A DNA stretch of 64,000 bases from Patescibacteria group bacterium UBA1388 (GCA_002305355.1 DBQS01000016.1:36279-100278), one strand, 5' to 3'. Counted from the first letter of the stretch, positions 62 to 41,688 are shown. The notes: generated from the letters alone by a model not told the origin. Numbers and translations: made by a program.

Positions 62-571
62 TTATCTCATGCCGATTGTAGTTTGGAACTCTCTACTTTC
101 AAAACCTGTATTTTGGACAATCGGACTCGTGACGGTGTACGAAATTTTCAATGCATGTTTACCGCCAGGATTTCCGAGTCTTTGAATTGAAAAATTGCTA
201 ATTTGGGTATCGAAATTTAATGGCTGATGTTGATCCTCAACAATCAACACTAACTGGCCATCATCAACTACATAAGTATAATTAACGCCCTCAATGATTA
301 ACTTTGCGGTAGGGGAATTCTCTCCCAATAATAATGGCTGTACGATATTTGCAGATCTTTTGATGTCATAGGCTAAACGAGCAAGTATAAACTGACCGTC
401 ACGTTCAACTGCTGATAAAGCTTGACTTTGGCTTTTCGCTTCCAAGATTGATAGGAAAAGGGAGCTGAGTTGCACGAACATCAGTGACACCAACGCAAAA
501 TATAGCAAGAGCTCGATTAATGTATAACCTTGATTGAATCTCTTAATGATCTTTTGATTTGTTTTTATCAT
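62..571 (-). CDS. Pseudopilin / type IV pilin-like protein (prepilin N-terminal cleavage-methylation motif)
   Basis: The N-terminus KRFNQG|YTLIELLLYFALVSLMF has the class III signal layout: basic leader, Gly, Glu at +5, hydrophobic helix. It lies co-directionally in a pseudopilin run. Confidence 0.75.
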   Translation of the reverse strand: MIKTNQKIIKRFNQGYTLIELLLYFALVSLMFVQLSSLFLSILEAKSQSQALSAVERDGQFILARLAYDIKRSANIVQPLLLGENSPTAKLIIEGVNYTYVVDDGQLVLIVEDQHQPLNFDTQISNFSIQRLGNPGGKHALKISYTVTSPIVQNTGFESREFQTTIGMR

Positions 572-624
572 GACTTAGCTGCTTACTATTCATTTTTTGT
601 TCATTCTCATTATCCGCTCAATTG

Positions 625-2607
625 CTATGGAGAGTAATTGACAGTGACTGAATCAATCACTGGGGTACTGGAGCTATCCGCCGTTTCTAAAAAAACTTTA
701 TACTTAAAACATCTGCCAGGGTTTTCATAACCAGAATCATCATCATTGATAGGAATTGGCCCTTCATCTGTAAAAAATGTGGAGCTGGTTCCATCGGGAC
801 CAACAAAGATATATGATGGCTCAACGCAATTTCCGTTGACCGCATCTGCTACGGCCACTTGAAATTTTGCGCTGGTTTGATTGGGTACCATCTTATTCAT
901 CATCACATAATTAAAGGCGGTGGCATAACCAGCATCAAGATATTGAGATTCATAAGTGCCGGTAGTTGCAAATGAATCTCCGGCCCCACCTTCAATAATC
1001 TTGAACTCTGAAGTACTATCTTTGCTAACAATGTAAGAGTATGCTTCGCCATCTTGCTCTAACACACCATCAACCCCATAAACACCGGTATCTAAGTTGA
1101 GGCTGCCACACATTGTTGGATGTGATTCGTCAGTGATATCTACCACTTGATACTCTTCACCTCCAGTGCCAACAATAATTAGTTTGTTCTCGGTCACGAG
1201 TGCCAAGTCCCTGGGATTCATACCATGAGTGTCATATGTCCCAATGAGCGGAAGTGATCCGGATTTGCTAGTGGTGTCAATGATAAATAATTCCCTCATA
1301 TCCCCTGCCTCATCAGTGATGAGATATGCTCTGGTGCCAGTTTCATTTACTTCCACATCCTTACCACGTCTACTATTGACATTTGCGTATCCAACTCTTG
1401 ACAAACTTCTCGGATTAGAAACATCAATTATTTGCATTTCCCTCAAGCCAAAATCAAGCGCCACATAAGCATAATTTCCCTTCACATCAATTCTATAACC
1501 AGTTGCTGGCCACAACAAATAAGGACTCAAGTTGATTGAGTCAAGTTCGGGCAAATTGCCAGACTTATTAGTCAAGTCTACAGTGTGCAACTTGGGACCA
1601 ATCACCATATATGCCACGTTCCCAGACACATGCACTCCTTGCGCAGATCCCCACCAGTAAGTGTCATTAAAAACTGCTACCTCTTGCCCTGTTTCAAGAT
1701 CAACAACCAATAAATCTTTCGAAACGTCACCAGTCGCAATGTAAGCATAATTTTCATCAATGAAAATGTCATTGGTGTCATATCCTGCGATTTGATTGGC
1801 AATACTCACGCCAGGAGGATCATTTTGATCAATATCCATTTCTACAAATACTCCACCAGTACCATCGGTACCGCTAAAAGCCTTACCCTCAATCGCCCTC
1901 ACCACTTTAGCACGCCCTGTGCCAGGTAGGTCTAACTCGGTTCTAATGTAGTCGCTTGGTTTACACCAATTCCCTTTTCCACCAGAACCCAAAATGATTT
2001 CTCCGCCTTGATTATTTACCACCGCTGTGCCACTAGTGAATCCCTCTAAAAAATCTGCTTCACTCGTTTCGATTAAAGACAGATTGTCCAAATATCTAGT
2101 CATATAAATTACAGATGAGATCTGTGATGAGCTGGGTTGTTCCCAACTAATTTGAATGTCAATTTTTTTGATAGATGGATCAATAGTCCCACCTTCAGCA
2201 ATAATGTTTTCTGTTTCATCACGCATCACATCTGAAATAGTAAGTGCTCTTGTGAAGAGACCAGTTGTTTCTTCACCAGCCATAAGCGTCCAAGTCGATT
2301 CAGTCACTACCGGATGATAAACACCATTCGTGGCAATTGACTCCCAACTAGATTCTCTAATCACACGTAAAGCCTCCACGGTTTCAATGAGCAAACCATG
2401 CGCCTGAATTCTGTTCTGTCTTTGAGCGGAGCCTTGTTGAGAAGTAATAATTGCTCCAATTAAAGCAGGCGTAATAATTGCCATCAGGGCCATCACAACC
2501 AAAATTTCAATCAACAGTTGTCCCGAACTAGCGTTCCAGCTCTTCACAAATATTTGCCTCTGACCAGATAATTTTTGCAGAAACTTTAGATTAATTTTTT
2601 TGCGCAT
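625..2607 (-). CDS. Large pilin-like protein: prepilin-type N-terminus fused to an LVIVD-repeat beta-propeller-like domain
   Basis: The N-terminus NASSG|QLLIEILVVMALMAII has Glu at +5. The body holds at least five LVIVD-type repeats: NYAYIATGDVSKDLLVVDLETG, GNVAYMVIGPKLHTVDLTN, GNYAYVALDFGLREMQIIDVSNP, TRAYLITDEAGDMRELFIIDTT and KLIIVGTGGEEYQVVDITDESHP. Confidence 0.7.
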   Translation of the reverse strand: MRKKINLKFLQKLSGQRQIFVKSWNASSGQLLIEILVVMALMAIITPALIGAIITSQQGSAQRQNRIQAHGLLIETVEALRVIRESSWESIATNGVYHPVVTESTWTLMAGEETTGLFTRALTISDVMRDETENIIAEGGTIDPSIKKIDIQISWEQPSSSQISSVIYMTRYLDNLSLIETSEADFLEGFTSGTAVVNNQGGEIILGSGGKGNWCKPSDYIRTELDLPGTGRAKVVRAIEGKAFSGTDGTGGVFVEMDIDQNDPPGVSIANQIAGYDTNDIFIDENYAYIATGDVSKDLLVVDLETGQEVAVFNDTYWWGSAQGVHVSGNVAYMVIGPKLHTVDLTNKSGNLPELDSINLSPYLLWPATGYRIDVKGNYAYVALDFGLREMQIIDVSNPRSLSRVGYANVNSRRGKDVEVNETGTRAYLITDEAGDMRELFIIDTTSKSGSLPLIGTYDTHGMNPRDLALVTENKLIIVGTGGEEYQVVDITDESHPTMCGSLNLDTGVYGVDGVLEQDGEAYSYIVSKDSTSEFKIIEGGAGDSFATTGTYESQYLDAGYATAFNYVMMNKMVPNQTSAKFQVAVADAVNGNCVEPSYIFVGPDGTSSTFFTDEGPIPINDDDSGYENPGRCFKYKVFLETADSSSTPVIDSVTVNYSP

Positions 2608-3118
2608 GCATCGCTCCTAATTGGTTAATTTCGAAATCAACTCGATCCCCAGTTGTTGAATTTTCCAAACTAAATGTATCTAAATCAGATTGATAGTTCA
2701 TGACTTCACCGCTTAACGGTAAAAATATAATTTGTCTATCAGGTATCGTCACTTCCCTAAATCTGACATCCTGAGGCAATGTCGCCACCACATTGGCGGA
2801 GTCGCTAGCTTGGAAAGTATCACCTTGAAACAAAACATATTGATCATCTCCTAAATAAACACCCTGAGGTAGTGCCTCATCGAGATTTGAATAATTGCCT
2901 TGCATGGCCTGCATTTGTTGTCTTTTCAAGTCGGAAACAAACATTTGTTGATACTCGCTGAGATTTGTTTTCGGGATTAATCCTGACAAAGAAATGCTAG
3001 AAATTGCAAACACTACTGTAAATAAGGCAAGCACAACTAATATTTCAACGAGCGTCATGCCTTTATCTTCATAAAGAATCGATCTGTGCAACCAATCCTT
3101 ACTTTTCCTGTTCATCAT
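2591..3118 (-). CDS. Pseudopilin (prepilin N-terminal motif); start moved to an internal ATG
   Basis: Motif YEDKG|MTLVEILVVLALFTVVF. The ORF-track start (3268) would overlap the kinase gene by 170 nt. The ATG at 3118 (MMNRKSKDW...) gives a normal leader and only a 20 nt overlap with the kinase stop at 3099. Confidence 0.7.
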   Translation of the reverse strand: MMNRKSKDWLHRSILYEDKGMTLVEILVVLALFTVVFAISSISLSGLIPKTNLSEYQQMFVSDLKRQQMQAMQGNYSNLDEALPQGVYLGDDQYVLFQGDTFQASDSANVVATLPQDVRFREVTIPDRQIIFLPLSGEVMNYQSDLDTFSLENSTTGDRVDFEINQLGAMHAQKN

Positions 3119-5339
3119 TTGGGTCTTTCTTAACACTTTTTTCTTCGTGACGTTTGCGTAATTTTTTGAGTCCTTCCTCAGAATACACCGGCACTGTAAA
3201 ACTGAAAGTGGAACCTTTGCCATGACCGTCCGATTCAACCCAAATTTTCCCTCCGTGCAACTCAACAATTGATTTGCTGATGTACAAACCTAATCCAGTG
3301 CCTTGAGCTGAATCTTTGTTCGAAATGTAAGATTCTTTGAGCATACCAAATTTTTTAAACAACTTTGAAATTTGATCCCTCGCCAAACCTACTCCGGTAT
3401 CAATGACGCTGATCGTCACAAATTGTTTGGAAGCAGTTAGACATACTCTGACCTTACCTTGAGGGGGTGTGAATTTGAGTGCATTACCTATTAAATTAGT
3501 CAATACTTCAGCAATTTTATCTCGGTCTGCCATCACATCTGGTAAATCAGACATTTTCTGATGTTTAGCGGTCGGACACTCAATAGTGACCTGCACGTGA
3601 TGCGCTTCAGATCGAGGTTGAAATTCACCGACAATTTGTGACACTAATTCACCAATTTTTAGTTGGGTAATATTCAAAATAATTCTTCCTGATTCAATTC
3701 GCGAAATGTTCAACAAATCATTGATCAATTGTGACATTCTGTTGGCAGAGGCATATGCCCTATCTAAATAAAACTTTTGCTTGCGTTGCAACCTACCACC
3801 CTTGCCCGCCAAAGTCATCCAAATATAATTTTTGATTGAAACCATGGGAGTCCGCAACTCGTGAGAAGCAATTGATACAAATTCATCTTTAAGCTTGTCT
3901 AACTCCTGCAATTTTTTATTGGCAGCCAGTAATTGACTAGTAGCTCGTTCAATTTCATCCTCAAGTGTTATATTGAACCTGCGAATTTCTTCATAAGCTT
4001 TAGCATTTTCAATAGCAACTGCTGCTTGAGAGGCAATGATGTTAACTAACTTGGAGTCTCGGCTTGAAAAAGGATCGCCAGACAATTTCCCTCCCAAAGT
4101 AATTAGGCCTATTGTTTGACCCTCCTTAATCATCTCGATCACTAATTCAAACTCATATTTTTTAAAAATGTTCTGTAATTTGTTGTTGCTCAATGATTCG
4201 TAAATCATTAATTCATTGGGATGTAAAAGTTCTCCAATCTCTTTTTCATCAAGAACAGGTGTTTCGTCATACCCTTCACTAACAACCTGATATATCCCAT
4301 TTTCTTCAATTAAAATAATCATCCCTCTGTGAATTTTCATATTTTGTAACATACGTTGCAACAACTTCCGACATAAATCTTCCAGCAAGAGAGTGGATGC
4401 CATAATTAAAGTTAACTGGTGAAGCAATTCTTCGAAATCATAATAATCCTGATAAAAAATTTGATCCGTTGTTTTCGTAAGGAATTTTTTGAGTGGTTGC
4501 AGCGTAAATCCCACAGCAATAGACAAAAACACGAATATACTTGCTAAACGCAAATCTAACAAACTACCGAAAATCAAATTTGAAAACAAAAATAGAAAAA
4601 TACTTTGGAAAGTTGCAAAAATAATCAAGACTAAAAAATAGGAGACAGTTCTCGCTAGGACTGGCCTGATGTCTAAAAGTTGGTAACGACCAATGGCTGC
4701 GGCAACGGCCCCTCCTCCCAACAATAAAAATAATGGTGACCAATCAACAAACCAGGTAATATGAAAAATGAGCGGCAAAATTACCGTTGATACCAGCATT
4801 AAAATAAAGCTAATTGAAATACCGACTGCAATTAATTGCAGTTGTTGTCGCAAATAACCTTTGCTTAAACGGTATTTCCTGAACAGACTTGCTACTCCTC
4901 CCAAGATTGCACCTATCTGCAGCATCATAAATGACAACACTGCGGAACCAGCTTCGATTTGTAAAGTACCTGCTTCAATCGTAACTCTAGAAAAAATTAA
5001 TCCCGAATAAGCAAGAACAAAATTGAGCAAAACCCACAAAAAAAGAACGATTTGGATTTTCAAATTAAAAAATATTTTTTGTGTGGGAAATACTTTCACA
5101 AAACAAAAAAAGAAGGGACCAGCTGGAATGGCTGAAAATAGTATCATTTTAGAAAAGAAATCAAGGCCCATTTGAGAATTGGTATGTAAAGCTAAATAAT
5201 TAAAAATTGGGTAAAGACTAATGCAAAATAAAAGAAAAGCAAAATAGATATGAGTACCACTTTTCCTATTTTTGAGAATAATAAACAAGCCCAGTACAAA
5301 ACTGATTAAAGCAGTCAAGATGGCGATAAATAATTCCAT
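3099..5339 (-). CDS. Sensor histidine kinase: polytopic N-terminal membrane domain, GAF-like domain, HisKA, HATPase_c
   Basis: About 290 aa of repeated hydrophobic helices are followed by a GAF-like segment ending AAVAIENAKAYEE. The H-box is IASHELRTPM. The ATP-lid is GTGLGLYISKSIVELHGG. Confidence 0.85.
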   Translation of the reverse strand: MELFIAILTALISFVLGLFIILKNRKSGTHIYFAFLLFCISLYPIFNYLALHTNSQMGLDFFSKMILFSAIPAGPFFFCFVKVFPTQKIFFNLKIQIVLFLWVLLNFVLAYSGLIFSRVTIEAGTLQIEAGSAVLSFMMLQIGAILGGVASLFRKYRLSKGYLRQQLQLIAVGISISFILMLVSTVILPLIFHITWFVDWSPLFLLLGGGAVAAAIGRYQLLDIRPVLARTVSYFLVLIIFATFQSIFLFLFSNLIFGSLLDLRLASIFVFLSIAVGFTLQPLKKFLTKTTDQIFYQDYYDFEELLHQLTLIMASTLLLEDLCRKLLQRMLQNMKIHRGMIILIEENGIYQVVSEGYDETPVLDEKEIGELLHPNELMIYESLSNNKLQNIFKKYEFELVIEMIKEGQTIGLITLGGKLSGDPFSSRDSKLVNIIASQAAVAIENAKAYEEIRRFNITLEDEIERATSQLLAANKKLQELDKLKDEFVSIASHELRTPMVSIKNYIWMTLAGKGGRLQRKQKFYLDRAYASANRMSQLINDLLNISRIESGRIILNITQLKIGELVSQIVGEFQPRSEAHHVQVTIECPTAKHQKMSDLPDVMADRDKIAEVLTNLIGNALKFTPPQGKVRVCLTASKQFVTISVIDTGVGLARDQISKLFKKFGMLKESYISNKDSAQGTGLGLYISKSIVELHGGKIWVESDGHGKGSTFSFTVPVYSEEGLKKLRKRHEEKSVKKDPNDEQEK

Positions 5340-5345
5340 GCAGTG

Positions 5346-6482
5346 CTAGGGCAAATTAATCGCCTCCAAAACACTTCTGCGTGGCGTGTGAATTTCCCTA
5401 TTTACACTATACCCTAATCGAAAAAACATGTGAGGAGTAAGTTTGGGAATCCTGAAAAACGATTGCAAAAACGCTGGGTAGTTTTTGTTTTCAACCAAAG
5501 CTGCCATCGGCGTAGTGCTGATTCCAAAGTTTCGACAAACCAAAGCAACTAATTGATAAGCAATACCAGCTTGAATCCATGCCAAAATATTATTCTCAGA
5601 GCTAGCTATTAATCCTAACGCTGGTGCTGACTGTAAATTTTTAGCATCTTTGATCGACTGTATTTTCAATGGAAAAGCAAAAAACCTAATCACTATTGGT
5701 CCTAACCAAGACATCAAAAGTGGTAAACCTGAAACAAAACCGGGCATACCATCCGCTTGCTGAGTGTTGTTCGCTCGCAACCACTGGCTTAATTCTCTTC
5801 TGAAATTCTGATTCGCAGACATTTCATATGCTGCCTTCTTGTAAAGCTGAGCCAGTGTTTTAATTGTATCCCCATTTGATATAATTTTTAACTGAGATTT
5901 CGTAAATAATCTTACATAGTTGTTGATTAAATTTACAACTTGATTGGGAACAGTTTGAGAAAGATATTTCCCCTTATCTGAAAAACGTTTATCAATATTC
6001 TCAAACAGCCTACCGAGTATCATTAGTTTGGATATTTGATGATCATCTGTTGGTTTTTGAAATGAAACTTGAATTAATAATTCAAATCTTTTAACCCATA
6101 GGTCATTAACATTTGAAAAACAATTTTTAGTCTTAGTGATTCCTTGAAAATAGTTATCTTGATTAATATTTGATCTTTTCCGGTGAATTTCATAGTCAAT
6201 TTGATAACCATATGCTGCAGCAGCAACTTGTAAGTTTGTGATCATACAGCCGAGACTTATAAAAACACCCCTGTCAATGGGATCCGCGGCTGGCAGACGC
6301 AACTGATAATTTGGAGAAATTGTTAACCCGCCATCATTGACCTTTAACTTCCAAGGCTGCGTATTATGAGTTGATGGGGCAAGGATGCCCGCTTTCAAAC
6401 TTTCAGACACTACAACTGCTAATGATTTGTTGGATTGCGGTTGACGTAAATGATGCCAAGCTGCGTAATTGTGCTTATGCAT
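5346..6482 (-). CDS. Acg-type (two-lobed) nitroreductase-family FMN oxidoreductase
   Basis: The N-terminal signature GILAPSTHNTQPWKL is followed by AADPIDRGVFISLGCMITNL. The 378 aa length fits a duplicated nitroreductase fold of the Acg/Rv2032 type. The start codon abuts the upstream stop (6482/6483). Confidence 0.6.
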   Translation of the reverse strand: MHKHNYAAWHHLRQPQSNKSLAVVVSESLKAGILAPSTHNTQPWKLKVNDGGLTISPNYQLRLPAADPIDRGVFISLGCMITNLQVAAAAYGYQIDYEIHRKRSNINQDNYFQGITKTKNCFSNVNDLWVKRFELLIQVSFQKPTDDHQISKLMILGRLFENIDKRFSDKGKYLSQTVPNQVVNLINNYVRLFTKSQLKIISNGDTIKTLAQLYKKAAYEMSANQNFRRELSQWLRANNTQQADGMPGFVSGLPLLMSWLGPIVIRFFAFPLKIQSIKDAKNLQSAPALGLIASSENNILAWIQAGIAYQLVALVCRNFGISTTPMAALVENKNYPAFLQSFFRIPKLTPHMFFRLGYSVNREIHTPRRSVLEAINLP

Positions 6483-7586
6483 TTAATTTACCTCCATCAT
6501 ATCTTCAAGATCAAATATACTTGGAAAATGAATTTTCGTTTGCTGACTAACAACCTTTTTGCGCAGGGCAATTTGTCTAACTAAAAAGGCAGTGATACCT
6601 GCGCCAACTGTCACCGAACTATACAGTTGTGGTCTACCAACCAAAGTTATTCCCAACTGGGTAACTGAGCGCTTTGCTCTAAGCGGCACATTATTTTTAC
6701 CAACTAAAGTTACCGCCAACATTTTCCGTTCATCATCGCTTAATTTTTGATTGACTATTTTATTTAATAAGGCTGCTTTCACCCTGCCATGAAAAGGTTG
6801 CAAACTTTCTAAGTCGTAACGTTCAACATCGAACAATACCGAATCACCCAAATTAGTGCACATCAAGAGAGGCAAACGGTACTTTTTCGCCATTTGTCTT
6901 AACAGGACTTTCATCGGAAAGTCATCTATTGCATCAATAAGCAATTGCGGCCGATTCTTTTCCCTCATTAATTTTTCTATTAATGTTTGAGTGGCTCTTT
7001 TCCGAATCACATTTAACTTTAAAAAAGGATCAAGCTGATATAAATCTTGAGCAACCCGCTCTGCTTTTGACTGACCAATAGCAAAGATATCGACCGGTAC
7101 ACGATTTAAATTTGATATCGAAAAATAATCATCATCACAAATTGTCATCCTCTGTGAAAAACCGCACTGGATGATAGTTTTCGCAATCACCCCGCCAATA
7201 GACATCCCAAAAATTGCAATCGGAAAGTCACGGAGTTGCAGCTGTTCTTTTGCTGAAATGAGTTTTTGATTACGGTTGGTGCGCAAAGCAAAAAAATTAT
7301 GCTCTGTAAGTAAGTGTACGATGGCATTTCTCCATGGATAATAGACCCACACGCCAATAATTTGATCTTGTTCTTTATTATCAGCTAAAAATTCTTGCAA
7401 CTTGGCTTGATTGCTTGCCACAGATGGATTAGTTATTTCAAATAATTCCCGTAGTTGGTCTTGGTAGTGATCAATTTTATTAACTTGAGGATGATGAGCT
7501 AACCATCTTGATAAGTCTTTAGGAGAGTGCGAATCAGCAGAAATTATGAAAGGTGAATATTCTGACTTCATTTGCTCATTCATCAA
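6483..7586 (-). CDS. Divergent E1/ThiF/MoeB-like adenylyltransferase-fold protein with a unique ~110 aa N-terminal extension
   Basis: A Rossmann loop IAIFGMSIGGVIA is followed by the E1-family hallmark CDDDYFSISNLNRV (D-x-D..SNL.R). I saw no C-terminal rhodanese domain and no obvious CxxC pairs. Confidence 0.6.
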   Translation of the reverse strand: MMNEQMKSEYSPFIISADSHSPKDLSRWLAHHPQVNKIDHYQDQLRELFEITNPSVASNQAKLQEFLADNKEQDQIIGVWVYYPWRNAIVHLLTEHNFFALRTNRNQKLISAKEQLQLRDFPIAIFGMSIGGVIAKTIIQCGFSQRMTICDDDYFSISNLNRVPVDIFAIGQSKAERVAQDLYQLDPFLKLNVIRKRATQTLIEKLMREKNRPQLLIDAIDDFPMKVLLRQMAKKYRLPLLMCTNLGDSVLFDVERYDLESLQPFHGRVKAALLNKIVNQKLSDDERKMLAVTLVGKNNVPLRAKRSVTQLGITLVGRPQLYSSVTVGAGITAFLVRQIALRKKVVSQQTKIHFPSIFDLEDMMEVN

Positions 7587-7589
7587 ACC

Positions 7590-9116
7590 TTACTTCTTAA
7601 TCCATCGTTGCTTAATAATGGGGTTAAAATATTTGGGATGATGGTGTTCCCAAAAAATCACATTTGGTTCGGCCCTGCCATTAATAGTTTCATAGGTTTT
7701 TCTGTATGGTGAATTTTCAACTTTTAAAATCTCAACCAGTGTTTTCGTTACAGATTTTTTCAGTGATTTTGAACTTTTAATACCACTCTTTAACTCGACG
7801 TTAATATCTAATCTTTGATTCTGATCCCGATCATATCTGACTTCCATAGTAAATCTGCCAGTAACTGCTACCTCTAATTCGGAACGAAGTAATGCCCTTC
7901 TAATTGTTTCCGGATAAATCGTGAAACCATAAAAACTAACCGAAAAATCTCGCCTTTCGTAAACATAAACAAATGGTAGCTGCCAAACGGTATGATCTAT
8001 TTTTTCTTGTTTCGCAAGCTTCAGCAAATCTGTGCCATGTTCTTCAAAATTTTTAATCATCCTTTCAAAGGAAATTACTCTACCCCTATCTTTCAAATCA
8101 TAGCGTGCAAGTGGCAAACCACTATAGGCAGAACAAATTAAATCACCATCATCATCTTCAAAATAAAACATGTCTGGGAAAAATTGGGTTAAGGTAGGAA
8201 CACGATAGATTTTGTTAAAAACTTGATCAAAAATTACTTTGTTCAGATAAGCCTTTCTTCTTGCCAAAATTGAAAGTGGTGTTTCATAAGACATCGTACC
8301 CATATCCACCGTACCATATTGATTTAAAGTGTGCGTGAAAATATTTTCTAAGCCAGTTGCTTTCGCCACATAATCTCGAAAAGACTCACTAAATACTTCC
8401 GCCGCAAAAATAAAACCAAGGTCATATTGTTTCCACTTCAAACCCTCTCGTTTTGCTTCATCTAAAGTATCTTTGAGAAATGGTCCATAACTCCCAATAA
8501 TGATTTGATCAAAATATGGACCCAAGCGTTTGACAGCCTTAATGATTTCTGTCGCACTCACACCGGGTGTAATCACACTTAATGGATACTGTCTACTATC
8601 AGCAATGTATTTAATGGCTTGATAAGTAAACAAGCCTCCAATCCACTGCCCCATCGGAAAACCAACGATGTAGAGCGTAGTTTTCTGATCAATTTGAAAG
8701 TTTGTGAGCAAATATAATTCTGCCATTGCTGCATACTGCCAATCTTGATCCCTTTCCCTCGGAAAATAAAACGGTTCACCAGTTGATCCAGTAGTTGATG
8801 CAATTACAACTGGCTTTGAAGATAACTTACCATCCCACGATAAGGCATCAAGAGGATATTGTCTTAAATATGAGTTCTTACTAACTGGGGGTACCTTTTT
8901 AAAATCGGCAATTGTATTAATTGTGTGCGGCCTAATCTTGTGTTTACGTAAAAAATCTCGATAAGCAGGCACACGTAATGCCATCTGCTGAAATAATTGT
9001 AAAACGCGTTTGTCGCCTCTTTTTTGCCAATAATATTCTGGATTGTGTTGTAATTTGTAAAGTAATTTATTTGGTTGTAAATAGCCAGACGCTATTAATG
9101 TCCTGTTATTCTTCAT
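7590..9116 (-). CDS. Adenylate-forming enzyme of the phenylacetate-CoA ligase / coenzyme F390 synthetase (PaaK/CapK-like) family
   Basis: AMP-binding motif ASTTGSTGEPFYFP, plus FAAEVF and QYGTVDMG motifs. The start is set at ATG 9116 (MKNNRTLIAS), which overlaps the upstream stop as ATGAAGAATAA. The ORF-track start at 9221 would overlap 116 nt. Confidence 0.6.
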   Translation of the reverse strand: MKNNRTLIASGYLQPNKLLYKLQHNPEYYWQKRGDKRVLQLFQQMALRVPAYRDFLRKHKIRPHTINTIADFKKVPPVSKNSYLRQYPLDALSWDGKLSSKPVVIASTTGSTGEPFYFPRERDQDWQYAAMAELYLLTNFQIDQKTTLYIVGFPMGQWIGGLFTYQAIKYIADSRQYPLSVITPGVSATEIIKAVKRLGPYFDQIIIGSYGPFLKDTLDEAKREGLKWKQYDLGFIFAAEVFSESFRDYVAKATGLENIFTHTLNQYGTVDMGTMSYETPLSILARRKAYLNKVIFDQVFNKIYRVPTLTQFFPDMFYFEDDDGDLICSAYSGLPLARYDLKDRGRVISFERMIKNFEEHGTDLLKLAKQEKIDHTVWQLPFVYVYERRDFSVSFYGFTIYPETIRRALLRSELEVAVTGRFTMEVRYDRDQNQRLDINVELKSGIKSSKSLKKSVTKTLVEILKVENSPYRKTYETINGRAEPNVIFWEHHHPKYFNPIIKQRWIKK

Positions 9117-10161
9117 AAGATTCAATCTTTTGCAGATTAATTTCATCGGCAATAATGTGTGGCGAGCGCCTGGTTTTGGCACTAAGCTTAAAAATCTGGT
9201 CAAGCTCAGTGGCAATTGCATCCAGCTTTTTCATCATTCTGCGATGACTACGACGTGGGAACTCATACTCATCAACAACACTCATTAAACCACCGGCATT
9301 GATAATGTAGTCTGGGGTATAAAGAATATGACGCTCAAAAAGTAGATCTCCCATTTCTGAGGATGACAACTGATTGTTGGCGCCACCCGCTACTAATTGA
9401 CACTGCAGTTGCTTAACTGTTTTTTGATTAATACTACCGTACATAGCACATGGCACAAATACATCTACTGGCAAAGTAGCAATCGCTTCAGGTTTTACCA
9501 ATTCCACACGAGGATAAATTTTTTTAATGTTGGAAGTCACACTTTCTAAAACATCAGTCGCATAAATTTTTTCTGCCTCTGAGTAAAGTTGGCTGAGAAC
9601 TCCTGATCCAATTTTTCCCAAACCCTGAATGGCAAAACTCCTCTGATGCATTTCGTCATCACCAAAAACATGTTTCAAGCCCACTTTTAAGCCTTTAATA
9701 ATACCTGCCACAGTGTACTTCACAGGGTCAATTTCTCCGCCCACAACGTGTGAACTCAATTTCTTCAATTGCCGTACTTGCTGCCGACTCATGCCAATAT
9801 CTGCCCCGGTAATGAACATCCCAGCCAATAAATTAATCTGCTCCGCGTATGCTGCGGCCATGCGTGCTGTAAATTCTTCTGGGTGAGCAATAATCACAGC
9901 TTTTGCGCCACCATAAGATAAATTTCCAGCAGCTGATTTAAAAGACATTGTTTTCGATAAACGTAATACATCCCTCAGGGCTTCGACACGACTTGCATAG
10001 GGATAAATTCTAGTTGCCCCAAAAGACTTAAGTTTTTTTGAGCCACGATGAATGGCAATAAATCCTTCTAATTGTTGAGACGGTTGATTAAAGTAATGCA
10101 CGACTCGGTGTTGGTCATATTCCTCAAGATCGAGATTTGCTGTCAAACTGTTTTTTTTCAT
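9106..10161 (-). CDS. Glu/Leu/Phe/Val dehydrogenase family protein (leucine/phenylalanine dehydrogenase-like)
   Basis: FGATRIYPY, a catalytic-lysine box SYGGAKAVI, an NAD-binding loop IQGLGKIGSG, and GGANNQL near the C-terminal lobe. This is the first gene of the long minus-strand operon. Confidence 0.75.
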   Translation of the reverse strand: MKKNSLTANLDLEEYDQHRVVHYFNQPSQQLEGFIAIHRGSKKLKSFGATRIYPYASRVEALRDVLRLSKTMSFKSAAGNLSYGGAKAVIIAHPEEFTARMAAAYAEQINLLAGMFITGADIGMSRQQVRQLKKLSSHVVGGEIDPVKYTVAGIIKGLKVGLKHVFGDDEMHQRSFAIQGLGKIGSGVLSQLYSEAEKIYATDVLESVTSNIKKIYPRVELVKPEAIATLPVDVFVPCAMYGSINQKTVKQLQCQLVAGGANNQLSSSEMGDLLFERHILYTPDYIINAGGLMSVVDEYEFPRRSHRRMMKKLDAIATELDQIFKLSAKTRRSPHIIADEINLQKIESYEE

Positions 10162-10229
10162 AGGTATTGTTAAAAAGTTTGCGACAACGTTTACTTGCTT
10201 TTTCTACCCCTAATCAGTATGCTTGGCTC

Positions 10230-10691
10230 ATGAACACATCTATTGCAACTTCAAACCCAATCGATTCGCCTCAATCTGCCAATAACAGTTATCCTACTAC
10301 AAAAAATGCAAATAGCAAAAATGGGAAGAAAATTTTGATAGCAGATGACGAACAATATATTCGGGAACTTTATGAAGAAGTATTAAGCAGTGAAGGATAC
10401 TCTGTTGAGGGAGTTTCCGATGGTAAAACAGCTCTGGAAAAAATTTCAGAGGGAGGGTGGGATCTAATTACTCTTGATGTAATTATGCCCAAGCTCGATG
10501 GCTTGGGAATCCTTACAAAACTTGAGGAAACTCCACCAAAAAAGAAAAATGGACCAATCATTTTGCTTACTAGTCTTGCCAATGACCCCGCCGTTCTAGA
10601 AGCTCAAAAAAAAGGTGCCACTCAAGTCATCATCAAAACTGATATTACTCCTAAGCAGTTGGTGGATCTGGTTAAAAAACAGATTGGTTAA
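10230..10691 (+). CDS. Single-domain response regulator (receiver only, CheY-like)
   Basis: KKILIADDEQYIRE ... DLITLDVIMPKLDG ... LTSL ... K, with no output domain. The start is set at the first ATG (MNTSIATS); the ORF track begins at a TTG at 10167. It is divergent from the 10161 operon. Confidence 0.8.
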   Translation: MNTSIATSNPIDSPQSANNSYPTTKNANSKNGKKILIADDEQYIRELYEEVLSSEGYSVEGVSDGKTALEKISEGGWDLITLDVIMPKLDGLGILTKLEETPPKKKNGPIILLTSLANDPAVLEAQKKGATQVIIKTDITPKQLVDLVKKQIG

Positions 10692-10771
10692 GTAACACTG
10701 ATTATTTTAAAAATTTTTGCTGGAAATTTGGTACACTCGCTAGCTTGCTATAAATCAAAGACAAACAAATC

Positions 10772-11827
10772 TTATCTCGCGCCTACTGAGCCAATCAAAC
10801 CATAAATTGGAGCGATGATCGCCATCATCATCCCTCCCACCGCCAGTCCCACAAAAACAAGCAAGAGCGGTTCTAGCATAGCTGTCATTTTCTTTACAGA
10901 CTTACTCACCTTATAATCCATATTCTCAGATACATTTTGCATTGCTTCCTCAAGCGTGCCACTCTTCTCACCAACTTCCATTAACTTAATCATAATGCCA
11001 GGAATAATGTTCTGCTTGCTTTGTAAACCATGAGAAAAAGGATGACCAGCAACAGCTTGCTCTCGAGCTTGATCCACCAAATCTCTGACTTCTTTTTTTA
11101 AAATTACCTCCTGAGCAAGTTCTAATGAGGTGGTGATAGGGATACCAGAAGAAAGAAGTAAATGTAAACTCCGACTAAATCTGGTGATATCGATTTCACG
11201 AATTAGCTTAGAAACTCCAGGAAATGAAAATGCTATTTGTAAGATAAACTCACGTTTGGTTTGATACAAAACAAAAATAATCATCACTAACAACGCTACA
11301 ATTCCGAGTACAATTTGCCAATTGCCAGTCAAAGCGTTGGAAGTAAAGATTAATGCTTTCGTCGCCATTGGAAGAGTGACATTCAACCTTGTAAATACAG
11401 TTGAAATACGAGGAATAACAAACAATAACATACCCAACAACACGCCAATAAAAACAATCATCACGACAATCGGATAAAACATGGCTGACTTCACACCGTC
11501 AATGAATTCCATTTCTTTTTTAATATTCCCCTGCAAATCGTACAATGTTTCTTCAAGTGTACCTGCTTCTTCAGCGGCTTTAATCAAACTCACTGTGACT
11601 TTGTCGAAAGTATAAGGATATCTAGAAAAAGAGTCGGAAATTTGTTTGCCTGCAGAAATATCTTCACGCAAGGACAGTAAAATCTTTCTTTGGTTTCCTT
11701 TTGCTTCTGCGAGCAACGAGTCGACTGTTTCTGAAATAGGGATACCAGCCGACAACATCGTTTTTAAATTAGCGATTAAGCTAATTTTTTCCTCTTGCGC
11801 TAATCTAACTCTGCCGAATCCAAACAT
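10772..11827 (-). CDS. pilC: Type IV pilus assembly platform protein PilC / GspF family
   Basis: Two T2SS-F repeats (MLSAGIPISE and LLSSGIPITT) and three TM segments. It starts 3 nt after the pilB stop. Confidence 0.85.
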   Translation of the reverse strand: MFGFGRVRLAQEEKISLIANLKTMLSAGIPISETVDSLLAEAKGNQRKILLSLREDISAGKQISDSFSRYPYTFDKVTVSLIKAAEEAGTLEETLYDLQGNIKKEMEFIDGVKSAMFYPIVVMIVFIGVLLGMLLFVIPRISTVFTRLNVTLPMATKALIFTSNALTGNWQIVLGIVALLVMIIFVLYQTKREFILQIAFSFPGVSKLIREIDITRFSRSLHLLLSSGIPITTSLELAQEVILKKEVRDLVDQAREQAVAGHPFSHGLQSKQNIIPGIMIKLMEVGEKSGTLEEAMQNVSENMDYKVSKSVKKMTAMLEPLLLVFVGLAVGGMMMAIIAPIYGLIGSVGAR

Positions 11828-11830
11828 GCC

Positions 11831-13525
11831 CTACTCCATTTCAGTCTTGGTCACTCTTAATACTTCTTCAATCGTGGTCATGCCCTTAGTAATTTTTTCA
11901 ATTCCATCATCAAACATGCTAGTTAATCCCTCTTTGAGGGCTTGTTCACTTATCGCATCTGCATCTGCTTTTTTGGCAATTAATTCTCGCAAATCCTTGG
12001 AAACTTCCAGAACTTCATAAATTCCAATTCTGCCCTTATAACCAGTGTTATGACACACTCGGCACCCTTGACCTCGATAAACTCTAACTTCTTTTTTATC
12101 ACCTACGGGAATGTAGTGTTTATTAATCGTTTCGAGAGAAAGATATTTTTGCAACTCTGTCACTGGTATTGTTTCTGAAACTCGACAATGTGGGCAGATC
12201 CTTCTCACCAGTCTTTGAGCTACAATCACATGCACCGTACCAGCTACTAAAAATGGCTCAACCTTCATATCAAATAACCGAGGCAACGAGGAAACTGCAT
12301 TGTTCGTGTGCAAGGTTGAGAAAACAAGATGTCCAGTCAAAGCCGCATTGATCGCAATGGCAGCGGTCTCATTGTCCCTAATTTCTCCCACAAATATGTA
12401 ATCAGGATCCTGTCTTAATAGGGACCTCAGACCATTGGCAAAAGTTAAATTTGTTTTTTCATTGACTTGCACCTGATTAGCACCTTTAATCCTATACTCA
12501 ACTGGATCTTCAATACTGGTGAGATTAGTTTCCCGCGTGTTGATCGTTTTTAGAATTGAGTAAATAGTAGTCGTTTTTCCAGATCCAGTTGGGCCGGTCA
12601 CCAAAATCATGCCGTCAGTTCTGGCAGCTGCCTTTTTAATTTTTACCAAATCTGTTTCATTAATACCTAGCTCTTCCAAAGAATAAGACCTAGCTTGAGA
12701 TGTCAACAGTCTCATCACAACTTTTTCGCCTTCTGCAATGGGAATTATTGAAACACGCAAGTCCAGTCGCTCTCCGTTAATATCCATTTTAATTTTACCG
12801 TCTTGTGCCGCTAAGTGCTGATCAGTTCTTAAGCTTGATAAAACTTTAATTCTAGTCACAATTCTACCGAGCAAGTCTTTAGGCAGACTGGCAATGTCAT
12901 GTAAAATCCCGTCAATCCTAAATCTGACCAACACCTCATCTTCATTGGGTTCAATATGAATATCTGATGCATGCTCTAAATAAGCAGCTTTAATCACTTC
13001 ATCGACCAATTTTTTAACGGGTGGATCGTGAGCAACTGTGCGCATCACTCTTCCATCTGCTTCATTCAGTAACTTACTAAATATTTCCTGAAAATCGGTG
13101 TGATAATTTAATAAGGTTTGATTTAAATCTTGTTCAGTAGCAAAAAAGATTTTGACTTGTTTGCCTGTTTTTTGGGCTACTAGTTTGGGTAAAATTTGAT
13201 TCTTAAAATCGGCTGTGGCAATACTGACATACTTTTCATCTTCTGCAAAAGTCACCATTTTATGACGTTTTGCTACCTCCTCAGGCATAATGTTCATCGT
13301 TTCATCAGAAATATTTTGTTTACTCAATTCAACAAATGGCACTTTAATTACTTCGGCAACTAACTTTCCCATAGCCTGATCGGTGGTATATCCTTTTTCA
13401 ACCAAACCATCCCAAAGACTCACATCTGTCTCTTCTGCAAATTTAGCGATTTTTTTGAGATCTGTGCGGCTGATAATTTTTTTAGCCAACAACAAATTGC
13501 TGAGTTGGGCATCAGTGAGTTGCAT
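11831..13525 (-). CDS. pilB: Type IV pilus assembly ATPase PilB / GspE family
   Basis: Walker A is VTGPTGSGKTTT. Asp/His boxes are RQDPDYIFVGEIRD and TGHLVFSTLHTN. The tetracysteine motif is CPHC...CRVC. An N-terminal T2SSE_N-like domain is present. Confidence 0.9.
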   Translation of the reverse strand: MQLTDAQLSNLLLAKKIISRTDLKKIAKFAEETDVSLWDGLVEKGYTTDQAMGKLVAEVIKVPFVELSKQNISDETMNIMPEEVAKRHKMVTFAEDEKYVSIATADFKNQILPKLVAQKTGKQVKIFFATEQDLNQTLLNYHTDFQEIFSKLLNEADGRVMRTVAHDPPVKKLVDEVIKAAYLEHASDIHIEPNEDEVLVRFRIDGILHDIASLPKDLLGRIVTRIKVLSSLRTDQHLAAQDGKIKMDINGERLDLRVSIIPIAEGEKVVMRLLTSQARSYSLEELGINETDLVKIKKAAARTDGMILVTGPTGSGKTTTIYSILKTINTRETNLTSIEDPVEYRIKGANQVQVNEKTNLTFANGLRSLLRQDPDYIFVGEIRDNETAAIAINAALTGHLVFSTLHTNNAVSSLPRLFDMKVEPFLVAGTVHVIVAQRLVRRICPHCRVSETIPVTELQKYLSLETINKHYIPVGDKKEVRVYRGQGCRVCHNTGYKGRIGIYEVLEVSKDLRELIAKKADADAISEQALKEGLTSMFDDGIEKITKGMTTIEEVLRVTKTEME

Positions 13526-13531
13526 ACTTTT

Positions 13532-13537
13532 ATCATA
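13532..13537 (-). promoter_or_regulatory. Candidate -10 box (TATGAT) 6 nt upstream of the pilB ATG
   Basis: The minus strand reads GTATATGATAAAAGTATG. There is no Shine-Dalgarno sequence between the box and the ATG. The -35 position (TTCATT, 13560..13555) abuts the IS boundary. Confidence 0.35.
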
Positions 13538-13559
13538 TACTAAAAATTAACTAAAATGA

Positions 13560-13566
13560 AACTTTT
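13560..13566. repeat. Target-site duplication AACTTTT (left copy) of the IS481-like element
   Basis: An identical 7-mer directly flanks both ends of the element (13560..13566 and 14644..14650). The neighbouring bases differ. Confidence 0.7.
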
Positions 13567-14643
13567 GTTAGTCGCACATACTTTTCGGAAAATTGGTTGT
13601 AATAAATTGCACTGGTGATTGATAATTTAGTGCCATATGTGGTCGCTTGGTGTTGTACCAAGCTAAGTACTTAGTTAGTTTAACTTGGAAAGTGTTTAAG
13701 TCATAGTAGATCTCATCATTTCTGTTAATAAACTCTTCTTGGATGGTTCTGTTAAATCTTTCAACAACACCATTAATTTTGGGTGATCTAGGATAAATAA
13801 ATTGATGTTTAATTTTTTGCTTCTCCAGATACTGGTGAAATGTTTTAAAAAATTCTGACCCGTTGTCTGTTTGGACTGTATAAACTTGATGAGGCAAAAT
13901 ATTTTGGAATTCCTGAAAAGTAATTTTAGCTTGCAAGCTAGAGAGAGTGCTAACTTTCCTGACATGAGCTAGCTTTGTAAAGATATCGATACAACACATG
14001 AAGTTGTGTCGAGTGTTGTCGATATACACCACCACAGAGTCCATTTCGATATATCCTGGTTTAGTAACCTTAGGAGATCTTCTTGATCTATCTTTAGATA
14101 ATTTATTCTTTCTCTTAACTCTTCTTGGTGGATCAAAGAATAAGTTTCTTCTCCTAATCACTTTAGAAATAGTTCGACTGCTAATTGAGGGTATATTAAG
14201 CTCACCAGCATATTCATCTAAAAAGATCTTGAGTTTTCTTTCTCCAATGTTGCCATGCTGCTCTCTAAACTCACGAATAAACTGAACTAATCTCCAATCA
14301 GTCGTCATCTGTCTAACTCTCTTGGGACGAGTCTTCTTAGGTACCAGTGATAACAGAGCTTTTCCAGATTCTTCATACTTTCTTTTCCAGTCATACAAGG
14401 TAGATTTGCCAATCTTGAATGCTTGAATAGCTGATTTGTAGCCATATTTGTAGTAGTGATCTAGCACGTGGAGTCTAAACTTGGCAGGATCTGATTTATC
14501 AAAGTTAAGTGAGTTTTCAAGTGTCTTCATCAACCAATCATACTGATTGTTATATGAAAACAACTCAATATTTCGTCTAATCCCAACTCCTTGTTTAACT
14601 TTCACGACTATCTTTCCATTCCGGAAAGTATCGTGCGACATTC
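13567..14643 (-). mobile_element. IS481-family-like insertion sequence, 1077 bp, single transposase ORF, imperfect ~25 bp terminal inverted repeats, 7 bp TSD
   Basis: The ends read inward as GTTAGTCGCACATACTTTTCGGAA and GAATGTCGCACGATACTTTCCGGAA. It is flanked by AACTTTT direct repeats and encodes one DDE (rve) transposase spanning almost the whole element. Confidence 0.75.
13568..14641 (-). CDS. DDE transposase (integrase core / rve domain), IS481-like
   Basis: An N-terminal HTH (KIGKSTLYDWKRKYEESG), then rve motifs VQTDNGSEF and SPKINGVVERFNRTIQEEF. It is a single unfragmented ORF. The true start may be the internal ATG at 14530 (MKTLENS). Confidence 0.8.
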   Translation of the reverse strand: MSHDTFRNGKIVVKVKQGVGIRRNIELFSYNNQYDWLMKTLENSLNFDKSDPAKFRLHVLDHYYKYGYKSAIQAFKIGKSTLYDWKRKYEESGKALLSLVPKKTRPKRVRQMTTDWRLVQFIREFREQHGNIGERKLKIFLDEYAGELNIPSISSRTISKVIRRRNLFFDPPRRVKRKNKLSKDRSRRSPKVTKPGYIEMDSVVVYIDNTRHNFMCCIDIFTKLAHVRKVSTLSSLQAKITFQEFQNILPHQVYTVQTDNGSEFFKTFHQYLEKQKIKHQFIYPRSPKINGVVERFNRTIQEEFINRNDEIYYDLNTFQVKLTKYLAWYNTKRPHMALNYQSPVQFITTNFPKSMCD

Positions 14644-15881
14644 AACTTTTTATCACCCAAAAATCCAGTTACTTCTGGTCTAATTATTTCTTTTTGAATT
14701 AACAAACCAGACGTCACGGTAAACAATCCATAACGATCATTCAAAGTATCAACTGCCTGAGAGATTTGTTCTTGTTGCCACCAACCCGGAAACCAGCAGT
14801 CTTGAATTTCAGACCATGGTTTGAGCAAAGACACGCCAACGTGCAATCTAATCACTGGAAATTGATTTCGCCAATTGGGGTATAACTGATACTTAATTAA
14901 ATCAAACATTTCGCTGACGTGTCGAACATAATATTTCAGGGTAAGATGATCTGCCCAAAACTGATGATTGCCAGCCAATGAACAAAAAACCAAACGACCC
15001 GCCAACTTCATTTTACGTAATTTATAAATTACTTCCTCTGAAAGATTATAAAGTGTGGACATAATCAAATCTTGGCTGCTGCTCAACCTGTATCCAGTGA
15101 TTGAGCGACTGACACTTTTCATGTAGGGTAAGTCATTTGCCAAGCGTTTTAAAAACAGCGGTTCTTCACCACGACCCATTTTACGCAGTTCATCACTCCA
15201 AAAAGGACCAAACATCGATCTTAAAACTTCAGTGGGAATAAAATTAATTTGATAAGGTACAGTTACTCCAATTCTGCCAAGACGCTTCGCTAAACGTGGA
15301 CCAATTCCGCAAACGTCTTTAAACTGAGTTTGAGCTAATATAAGCGCTTTGTTTGCTGCTGTAACTTGCCGCACGCTACCCTTTGGCGCAGTTTCACCAA
15401 CCATTTTAGCTAAAAATCGATTCTCCGCGATCCCAATATTGCAGGTCACCCACTCTCCTAAAATTGATTTAACTTTATCTTGAATTTTCAAGGCAAAATT
15501 ATATGGTGAATCGTATAATTTTTGAATCTGAGCATAATCAATAAAAACTTCATCTAAAGAAAATACTTCTGTGCTGGGACTAAGCTGATCAAACAACTCC
15601 TTCAAGCGCTTGGTAGCCGAGAAATACATTTCAAAAGCGGCTGGCATCTCAACTAAGTCAGGAGCAAGCTGGTATGCCTCTGCTAAAGAACAACCGGTAC
15701 CAATACCTTTTAATTTTGCCTCTTTGGAAGCAGCAATCACACAACTTCTACCCAATTCTTTTACAACCACCACCGGCTTATTGCGCAAAGCGGGTGTTTC
15801 CTGTTGGAGAAGGGTGGCAAAGTAAGAATTAATATCAATGTGCAGTACAACTTGTTGTTTCAGATGGTTAAGTTCATTCAC
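14595..15881 (-). CDS. dinB: Y-family DNA polymerase IV; C-terminal tail now encoded by IS sequence
   Basis: LHIDINSYFATLLQ, FSLDEVFID, and a little-finger-like C-terminal half. The start is set at GTG 15881, 6 nt after a GGAGG; the ORF-track ATG at 15923 overlaps the upstream ORF by 50 nt. The last 15 sense codons plus the stop (14595..14642, LNVARYFPEWKDSRES, completing the split codon 14645..14643) lie inside the IS. Confidence 0.8.
   Translation of the reverse strand: MNELNHLKQQVVLHIDINSYFATLLQQETPALRNKPVVVVKELGRSCVIAASKEAKLKGIGTGCSLAEAYQLAPDLVEMPAAFEMYFSATKRLKELFDQLSPSTEVFSLDEVFIDYAQIQKLYDSPYNFALKIQDKVKSILGEWVTCNIGIAENRFLAKMVGETAPKGSVRQVTAANKALILAQTQFKDVCGIGPRLAKRLGRIGVTVPYQINFIPTEVLRSMFGPFWSDELRKMGRGEEPLFLKRLANDLPYMKSVSRSITGYRLSSSQDLIMSTLYNLSEEVIYKLRKMKLAGRLVFCSLAGNHQFWADHLTLKYYVRHVSEMFDLIKYQLYPNWRNQFPVIRLHVGVSLLKPWSEIQDCWFPGWWQQEQISQAVDTLNDRYGLFTVTSGLLIQKEIIRPEVTGFLGDKKLNVARYFPEWKDSRES
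14644..14650. repeat. Target-site duplication AACTTTT (right copy)
   Basis: See 13560..13566. Confidence 0.7.
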
Positions 15882-20486: not shown

Positions 20487-20495
20487 CATCAACGA

Positions 20496-21173: not shown

Positions 21174-21205
21174 ACGCCTCTCATCTACCTGCTGCTAGTT
21201 CTGTA

Positions 21206-40997: not shown

Positions 40998-40998
40998 A

Positions 40999-41679: not shown

Positions 41680-41688
41680 TTCTTAGGT

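Follow-up and report, generated by a model that had tools for sequence, protein, structure and literature searches.

Four minus-strand genes at positions 5346-10161 of a 64,000-nucleotide stretch from Patescibacteria group bacterium UBA1388 (GCA_002305355.1 DBQS01000016.1:36279-100278; hereafter the window) raise a question of both chemistry and purpose. What might an amino-acid dehydrogenase, a PaaK-fold adenylating enzyme, a ThiF/E1-like protein and a two-lobed flavoenzyme make together, and what would their product be for? An earlier note on this DNA had taken region 5346-10161 as its unit; our analysis covers 3099-10691, which adds a sensor histidine kinase and a response regulator. We read this larger unit, with a probability of about one in two, as a variant of the oxazolone pathway that is independent of acyl-CoA, is found throughout the Candidate Phyla Radiation (CPR; Patescibacteria) and is coupled to a dedicated two-component system. 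The unit consists of six genes:

10230..10691, plus strand: response regulator of the CheY-like, receiver-only kind, transcribed divergently from the cassette; Pfam match to Response_reg only
9106..10161, minus strand: Leu/Phe/Trp-type amino-acid dehydrogenase of the ELFV (Glu/Leu/Phe/Val) family, 351 aa; both ELFV Pfam domains
7590..9116, minus strand: PaaK-fold adenylate-forming enzyme, 508 aa from the ATG at 9116; assigned by predicted structure, without a Pfam match
6483..7583, minus strand: ThiF/E1-like putative ATP-dependent cyclase, 366 aa; Rv1355c family model and ThiF Pfam domain
5346..6482, minus strand: two-lobed flavin-dependent oxidase (FDO; Acg-type, nitroreductase superfamily), 378 aa; Acg-family model NF047509
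3099..5339, minus strand: sensor histidine kinase, 746 aa, with HisKA_7TM, GAF, HisKA and HATPase Pfam domains; last gene of the cassette

Gene junctions and family assignments

The four minus-strand open reading frames (ORFs) noted earlier lie where they had been placed (9106-10161, 7590-9116, 6483-7586 and 5346-6482), and reading of the junctions bears out their tight operon packing. An 11-nt overlap, read as ATGAAGAATAA (9116-9106), joins the end of the dehydrogenase gene to the start of the PaaK-like gene, and the TAA at 6483 directly abuts the ATG at 6482. The 3-nt gap reported at 7590/7586 holds if translation starts from the TTG at 7586 (TAA, ggt, TTG) but becomes 6 nt with the ATG at 7583; the latter start gives the 366-aa product, which is identical (100%) to database protein P0001. 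Contrary to what had been supposed, the packing extends beyond 5346, since the kinase gene (3099-5339) begins 6 nt past the stop codon of the flavoenzyme. Cassette GC content is even with its surroundings, scans for promoters and terminators gave results no better than shuffled sequence and an Rfam search of the window returned no match.

All four family calls hold as well, through the two ELFV Pfam domains, the ThiF Pfam domain, a full-length Acg match and a PaaK fold by structure prediction. The motifs on which they had been based are present in the translations, namely YGGAKAVI and GLGKIGSG in the dehydrogenase, STTGSTGEPFYFP in the PaaK-fold enzyme, FGMSIGG with DDDYFSISNLNRV in the ThiF-like protein and APSTHNTQPW in the flavoenzyme.

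The ThiF-like protein and flavoenzyme as a split oxazolone synthetase

The ThiF-like protein matches NF005901, the Rv1355c family model, with 240.6 bits (E 3e-71) over model positions 4-339. The whole-protein cutoff of 476 bits lies above this score, as is expected for a protein equivalent to half of a fusion. In a BLASTP alignment, its residues 5-351 pair with residues 1-327 of a fusion protein annotated as Rv1355c family (31% identity). Since the alignment, like the model match, spans the N-terminal extension of about 110 residues, that extension is common to Rv1355c-family proteins and is not unique, as had been thought. Residues G126/S128/G130, D152, N158/N160/R161 (NLNR), K173 and D220 are invariant in 31 ThiF-like homologs. 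In the Rv1355c-family protein the residue opposite D220 is the conserved Asp, and the correspondence of D220 to D217 of TrzS is mapped via this family member and not via M. smegmatis TrzS; a D217A mutation abolishes the cyclase activity of TrzS (PMC12856293). The AlphaFold model of the ThiF-like protein (predicted local distance difference test (pLDDT) 91) has the E1 fold, its best match among solved structures being AclA of Tenacibaculum discolor (9egb), and PaaA and MccB are also among its structural matches. On ThiF, MoeB and TcdA models the protein reaches at most 52 bits (TIGR02356, cutoff 275), the remaining models giving at most 49. Its homologs are numerous and, where sources name a host, this is a member of the Patescibacteria.

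The FDO scores 192.2 bits on NF047509 (cutoff 199), residues 29-373 covering model positions 3-317 of 319, and its N terminus matches positions 370-456 of the Rv1355c model. When a profile of 35 CPR FDO sequences was aligned with the FDO portions of four fusions from the Rv1355c family (hhalign), a probability of 99.3% was obtained (E 1e-20, 265 columns), with the conserved APSxxNxQPW and Arg motifs in register.

Proteins of this kind have been characterized. The first form discovered was OxzB of Pseudoalteromonas rubra, in which ThiF and FDO are fused (bioRxiv 10.1101/2020.06.11.147165); separate TyzB and TyzC have been shown in M. tuberculosis (PMC10404671), and the fused TrzS is Rv1355c itself (PMC12856293). 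In the known pathways, an acyl-CoA-dependent N-acyltransferase (OxzA, TyzA or TrzA) generates an N-acyl aromatic amino acid, which the ThiF component cyclizes with ATP and the FDO desaturates with O2 (PMC12856293, PMC10404671, bioRxiv 10.1101/2020.06.11.147165). According to a 2025 review, oxazolone synthetase alone among ThiF-like enzymes is known to have a small molecule as its substrate (PMC12596934).

Judged by these sequence comparisons, the ThiF-like protein and FDO of the window are best described as a split relative of the characterized oxazolone synthetase. The azoline-forming pair McbB/McbC, which the earlier note had offered as precedent, is a more distant analogy; with 240 bits for the ThiF-like protein on the Rv1355c model, OxzB, TyzB/TyzC and TrzS are far closer. 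The note's further remark, that its author knew of no characterized pathway with this composition, does not apply to the ThiF and FDO pair, whose association is already known and is not new. The complete cassette we did not find in the searchable literature. Literature searches for oxazolones, ThiF, nitroreductase or PaaK-like enzymes in Patescibacteria or Saccharibacteria likewise found nothing relevant.

TrzS-like fusion genes also occur on large plasmids of Mycobacterium, Mycolicibacterium and Rhodococcus (loci L042, L044, L050 and L051), where their neighbours are GGDEF genes and a conserved 250-260-aa hypothetical protein (L044, L051) or a cytochrome P450 and TetR (L042, L050). A plasmid of Streptomyces sp. 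NBC_01426 (L043, 5836-7610) carries a stand-alone ThiF-like gene from the same clade (30% identity across 87% of the query), after which comes a gene for a GNAT acetyltransferase; with no flavoenzyme annotated nearby, it may represent a different pathway variant.

Conservation of the module across the CPR

We assembled 43 independent loci and assigned their ORFs by comparison with the window proteins; the 29 with at least 3.5 kb on either side of the ThiF-like gene were treated as complete. FDO is encoded in every complete locus. The PaaK-like gene lies directly beside the ThiF-like gene in 27/29 and within the cassette in the other 2, the 7TM (seven-transmembrane) histidine kinase is present in 28 and a response regulator in 21. 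Gene order differs among lineages while the gene set is constant, which points to selection on the set. Co-localization of the families in other genomes had been the earlier note's own test, and the arrangement does recur, in 43 independent loci and far beyond chance. The six-gene module recurs throughout the ultra-small Patescibacteria, the locus closest to the window being L001 (assembly GCA_964555515.1). Moreover, natural fusions (PaaK-ThiF, ThiF-PaaK, ELFV-PaaK and ELFV-PaaK-ThiF) join the enzymes and so tie them into one pathway.

Several loci are unusual in their source or state. The only complete locus outside Patescibacteria (L028, 100-4862) comes from a Margulisiibacteriota single-cell genome; it encodes the PaaK-like enzyme, FDO, ELFV dehydrogenase and ThiF-like protein, and has no 7TM kinase within 9 kb downstream. 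Eight loci (L006, L008, L009, L016, L020, L021, L037 and L041) are of the Patescibacteria type under record titles of 'uncultured Gammaproteobacteria' or 'Pseudomonadales' metagenome-assembled genomes, titles that look like taxonomic mislabels or binning contamination. In a complete Saccharibacteria genome (L039, CP064992.1), the aminotransferase and the 7TM kinase each fall into two overlapping ORFs (6204-7396 and 11035-13286) and the flavoenzyme match lies on the other strand; the split ORFs could reflect pseudogenization or assembly frameshifts.

A PaaK-fold enzyme in place of an N-acyltransferase

Every ORF of the cassette was assigned to a family other than the acyl-CoA N-acyltransferases, leaving none within it. 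Putative acyltransferases taken from actinobacterial loci, as candidates for TrzA, had no match at E<=10, either in the window or among the CPR loci. The constant partner is instead the PaaK-fold enzyme, which has no Pfam match and falls below the PaaK cutoffs (NF041878, 33 bits against 700; TIGR02155, 28 against 646). Its AlphaFold model (pLDDT 87) adopts the PaaK-type two-domain adenylate-forming fold. The best Foldseek match is PaaK1 (2y27; E 2.4e-22, target TM-score 0.77-0.80), and further structural matches include BT_0428, 2-hydroxyisobutyryl-CoA (2-HIB-CoA) ligase and the amide ligase ClxA (9s45). PaaK-fold ligases of the ClxA and NatL2 type, from benzoxazole biosynthesis, convert an acyl-adenylate to an amide or ester without CoA (PMC9400959, PMC12519233). 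By analogy, we propose that the window enzyme may be a CoA-independent N-acyl-amino-acid (amide) ligase.

The PaaK-like family comprises, at E<=1e-30 and with clustering at 50% identity, 788 representatives, its named sources all being Patescibacteria. It is the most conserved component of the module, distant loci having a median identity of 49% to the window enzyme; the least conserved are FDO (28%) and the 7TM sensor (27%). One PaaK-like homolog (P0134, 57% identity) is labelled Candidatus Jordarchaeaceae archaeon, which looks like a mislabel or binning contamination.

Supply of the amino acid or 2-oxo acid

The dehydrogenase matches PF02812 and PF00208, both above cutoffs, and keeps both catalytic lysines (FKSA...GGAK) as well as the Rossmann motif GLGKIGSG. 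Its best curated model is the ScyB Trp dehydrogenase (262 bits, cutoff 600), and in a search of the PDB it was equally near LeuDH 6acf (188 bits) and TrpDH 5b37 (187 bits). The pocket resembles that of TrpDH, with GATRI, Gly at the position of LeuDH Ala113 and NAGGL. In Saccharimonadales loci a class I/II aminotransferase (PF00155) stands in place of the ELFV dehydrogenase. The two enzymes occur in 12 and 15 of the 29 complete loci, respectively, and never together, an exclusivity that from the sequences would be non-orthologous displacement of one reaction.

An alpha/beta hydrolase, free or fused to FDO or ThiF, is present in 10/29 complete loci; the window cassette has none. Its kin are meta-cleavage-product and enol-lactone hydrolases. 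Five loci (L015, L024, L029, L034 and L037, at about 10.1-12.0 kb) have it fused to the C terminus of the flavoenzyme and one (L018, 8989-10959) to the ThiF-like protein, and in eight others it is a separate gene.

What is new in the cassette, beyond the known ThiF and FDO pair, is threefold. It has no N-acyltransferase and instead has a PaaK-fold enzyme without a Pfam family as constant partner; a dehydrogenase or an aminotransferase, never both, accompanies that enzyme; and the same 7TM kinase closes the cassette in 28/29 complete loci.

A sensor kinase linked to the cassette

A profile of the 7TM domain matches only cassette-terminal kinases, which come from 37 sources (36 loci and the window), one per locus save for a tandem pair in L018. 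It does not match the three other kinases of the 64-kb window. A reverse metagenome search from the 7TM domain returned five loci, all with cassette genes directly upstream, four with the full enzyme set and one (L049) cut by the contig end; the search used a narrow 7TM alignment and the five loci are close relatives. The kinase linkage suggests that oxazolone-type metabolites act as signals.

The regulator ORF runs mechanically from a TTG at 10167, the ATG at 10230 giving 153 aa, and a Pfam scan detected no output domain in it. Receiver-only regulators of 131-154 aa, divergent or downstream, are also found in L001, L003 and L005.

The 64 kb hold three further histidine kinase/response regulator pairs (19776-21194, 23241-25789 and 39978-41682), which is dense for a small genome. 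Their kinases are without HisKA_7TM; one has GAF and two PAS domains.

A proposed route to an oxazolone signal

The earlier note had sketched a general route from an amino-acid/2-oxo-acid step through carboxylate adenylation and E1 activation to flavin redox, and the homologies and gene set fit it. In the more specific route set out here, we infer the substrates, the amide-ligase activity, the oxazolone product and the relationship of signal to receptor. The dehydrogenase, or the aminotransferase in Saccharimonadales, would interconvert a 2-oxo acid and the corresponding bulky amino acid, probably an aromatic one, yielding a building block. The PaaK-fold enzyme would then adenylate a carboxylic acid and transfer it directly onto the amino group of an amino acid, so forming an N-acyl amino acid and standing in for the acyl-CoA N-acyltransferase (OxzA/TyzA/TrzA). 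The carboxylate of this intermediate may next be adenylated by the ThiF-like enzyme, whereupon the amide oxygen would close the ring to a 5(4H)-oxazolone, and the Acg-type flavoenzyme would desaturate the bond from C-alpha to C-beta. In some lineages the alpha/beta hydrolase, free or fused to flavoenzyme or ThiF, could process the reactive azlactone.

CPR bacteria are not generally known to have fatty-acid and acyl-CoA pools, so CoA-independent acylation would suit them. Were the acyl donor an amino-acid-derived 2-oxo acid, the product could be built wholly from two amino acids, although this is speculation. On the simplest reading the product would be a self-made signal that is sensed in the membrane by the 7TM kinase, acting with the receiver-only regulator; in the window lineage the output would probably pass to the flanking type IV pilus genes.

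A type IV pilus neighbourhood

The window cassette is embedded in a gene set for a type IV pilus or a machinery like the type II secretion system (T2SS), between ATPase/platform genes and pseudopilin genes. The neighbouring features are:

11831-13525: T2SS-E ATPase, upstream of the cassette
10772-11827: T2SS-F platform protein, upstream of the cassette
2591-3268 and 62-571: prepilin-type N-methyl proteins, downstream of the kinase
625-2607: 660-aa LVIVD-repeat protein, downstream of the kinase

This arrangement is repeated in L001 and L003, and T2SS-E/F genes also lie near the cassette in L011 and L047. Type IV pili matter for the episymbiotic lifestyle of CPR bacteria, and the neighbourhood hints at the output of the module.

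Between a DinB-like polymerase gene (IMS, 14595-15923) and T2SS-E lies a gene for a 357-aa rve-family integrase/transposase with helix-turn-helix domains (13568-14641). In L001 and L003, which are syntenic, T2SS-E comes directly after the polymerase gene, so by sequence this gene looks like a recent insertion of an insertion sequence.

Alternatives and points against an oxazolone signal

Several observations weigh against an oxazolone route coupled to its own receptor. In the structural comparisons the nearest relatives of the PaaK-fold model are CoA ligases, not amide ligases. The FDO sequence stops just short of the curated cutoff of the Acg family (192 against 199 bits) and could belong either to FDO subgroup A, with OxzB, TrzS and TyzC, or to subgroup B, with Acg. 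The ThiF-like protein has only about 31% identity to Rv1355c-type domains, so its substrate could have diverged. Most ThiF-like enzymes, moreover, act on peptides or proteins (PMC12596934). Known FDO desaturases need O2 (PMC12856293, PMC10404671, bioRxiv 10.1101/2020.06.11.147165), a requirement at odds with the anaerobic life of many CPR bacteria. The regulator, by its domain content, has no DNA-binding domain, and the type IV pilus neighbourhood is found in only 5/43 loci. Finally, adjacency cannot separate a kinase that senses the product from one that senses a precursor, or from mere co-regulation.

This last point leads to an alternative with similar enzymology, in which the product is not a kinase ligand but a protective, envelope-associated or antimicrobial metabolite, and the two-component system controls the operon or shares it, responding for example to membrane or host cues. 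Tyrazolones are cell lipids linked to stress responses without a known receptor (PMC10404671, PMC12856293), a cytoplasmic GAF domain is present in the window kinase as well and adjacency alone is no proof of a ligand-receptor pairing. We consider this alternative plausible but the less likely of the two. The kinase gene lies within the enzyme operon (6 nt) and its sensor subfamily is found only beside the cassette, features typical of synthase-receptor modules, and the regulator, being receiver-only, cannot itself be the transcription factor of the cassette. Nor are CPR bacteria known to produce fatty acyl-CoA pools of their own from which lipid-like oxazolones could be made. It is improbable that the genes serve the catabolism or salvage of aromatic or branched amino acids. 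On that reading the 2-oxo acid would come from the dehydrogenase, the PaaK-like enzyme would truly be a CoA ligase for aryl acids and the substrate would be what the kinase senses, in keeping with the phenylacetate-CoA ligases and BT_0428 as nearest structures, with the annotation of homologs as phenylacetate-CoA ligase in some sources and with the classically catabolic role of ELFV dehydrogenases. Scores on PaaK models of 28-33 bits against cutoffs of 646-700 speak otherwise, as do the invariant ThiF and FDO partners and the fusion of PaaK to the ThiF-like cyclase in several proteins, which is out of place in catabolism; nor does any locus contain a decarboxylase, a ferredoxin oxidoreductase or paa ring-opening genes. 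Phenylacetate catabolism was rejected on the ThiF fusions and the lack of downstream catabolic genes.

Modification of a peptide or protein in the manner of McbB/McbC, with the ThiF-like protein activating the C terminus of a ribosomal peptide or of a protein such as a pilin or the regulator and the flavoenzyme oxidizing the heterocycle, is a quite improbable explanation. Although most characterized ThiF-like enzymes act on the C termini of peptides or proteins (PMC12596934), the structural matches include PaaA and MccB and pseudopilin genes come after the kinase in the window lineage, the pilin neighbourhood is missing from most loci, the oxazolone synthetase, which acts on a small molecule, is by far the closest family and the amino-acid/2-oxo-acid enzymes make sense only for small molecules. 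The earlier note had rightly seen no YcaO, and there is none among the genes from 62 to 15923. A precursor peptide is absent too, since junctions of only -11 to +6 nt leave no room for its ORF. A system for ribosomally made peptides with post-translational modifications, of the thiazole/oxazole-modified microcin (TOMM; McbBCD) type, was rejected on these two absences and on the match to the small-molecule clade. That the ThiF-like gene encodes an ordinary MoeB/ThiF enzyme, activating a sulfur carrier for thiamin or molybdopterin, was, together with a sulfur-carrier partner nearby, one of the conditions under which the earlier note would have abandoned its proposal. Pfam PF00899 and the name 'molybdopterin/thiamine biosynthesis adenylyltransferase' given to homologs in several sources point that way, but equivalog models score at most 52 bits against cutoffs of 159-376, the constant partners are FDO, the PaaK-fold ligase and the kinase, and no ThiS/MoaD-like gene occurs in any of the 43 loci. 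The scores and the absent sulfur carrier effectively refute this identity, which we regard as having almost no chance of being correct.

The oxazolone pathway variant with its own two-component system thus accounts best for the gene set. A more ambitious version, which we put forward tentatively and consider less likely than not, is that the module forms a phylum-wide CPR autoinducer circuit, in which CoA-free joining of two amino-acid-derived blocks would give an oxazolone signal that is passed through the 7TM kinase to a CheY-like regulator and on to surface behaviour such as type IV pili and host attachment. Were this correct, it would provide the first receptor and physiological role for oxazolones and the first self-made chemical signal of CPR bacteria. 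According to the authors who characterized TrzS, oxazolones bear a resemblance to signalling molecules and have a physiological role as yet unknown (PMC12856293); a synthetase-type pair wired to one kinase in dozens of lineages makes the question of signalling testable. The cassette also points to the making of N-acyl amino acids independently of acyl-CoA, defines a large family of adenylating enzymes without a Pfam model and is one of few conserved specialized-metabolite or signalling modules in the CPR, with their minimal metabolism.

Comparison with known systems

Genes for signal synthases lie beside a multi-pass histidine kinase and a regulator in Legionella LqsA-LqsS-LqsR, Vibrio CqsA-CqsS and staphylococcal agrBDCA, and LqsR is without a DNA-binding output domain. 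The CPR module likewise places its enzymes beside a membrane kinase and a regulator, the window regulator resembling LqsR in having no DNA-binding output. The enzymes and sensor domains are not homologous to those of Lqs, Cqs or agr; the resemblance is one of logic, in how the CPR module may work.

With McbB/McbC(/McbD) of microcin B17 and TOMM clusters, the cassette shares an E1-like protein and a nitroreductase-fold FMN dehydrogenase, the McbC type oxidizing a five-membered heterocycle. It differs in having neither YcaO nor a precursor peptide, and its E1-like protein, which keeps the ATP-binding motifs, belongs by sequence to the oxazolone-synthetase clade. The PaaK-fold enzyme has the PaaK/F390-synthetase-like fold of ClxA and NatL2, which feed a heterocycle-forming step. 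Identity to these is about 16%, however, and the predicted structure is nearer to the true CoA ligases PaaK1 and BT_0428, so that an amide-ligase activity would be shared with ClxA and NatL2 only by analogy.

The closest comparison is with the systems for N-acyl oxazolones (tryptazolone, tyrazolone), namely TrzA/TrzS (Rv1356c/Rv1355c, M. tuberculosis), OxzA/OxzB (P. rubra) and TyzA/TyzB/TyzC (Rv2336-Rv2338c). As in these, a ThiF-like cyclase with an N-terminal extension and E1 motifs is paired with an FDO, the two being adjacent in the window as in TyzB/TyzC and not fused, and an aromatic amino acid probably serves as substrate. Both kinds of locus have signalling genes nearby, in the form of cyclic di-GMP enzymes beside trzAS and GGDEF genes beside the plasmid copies on one side, and of the kinase and regulator in the CPR cassette on the other. 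The hosts of the oxazolone systems are Actinomycetota or Proteobacteria, whereas those of the cassette are Patescibacteria. Unlike the oxazolone systems, the CPR cassette has a PaaK-fold enzyme and a dehydrogenase or aminotransferase replacing the N-acyltransferase, sometimes adds or fuses an alpha/beta hydrolase and, in 28 of the 29 complete loci, is closed by a 7TM histidine kinase.

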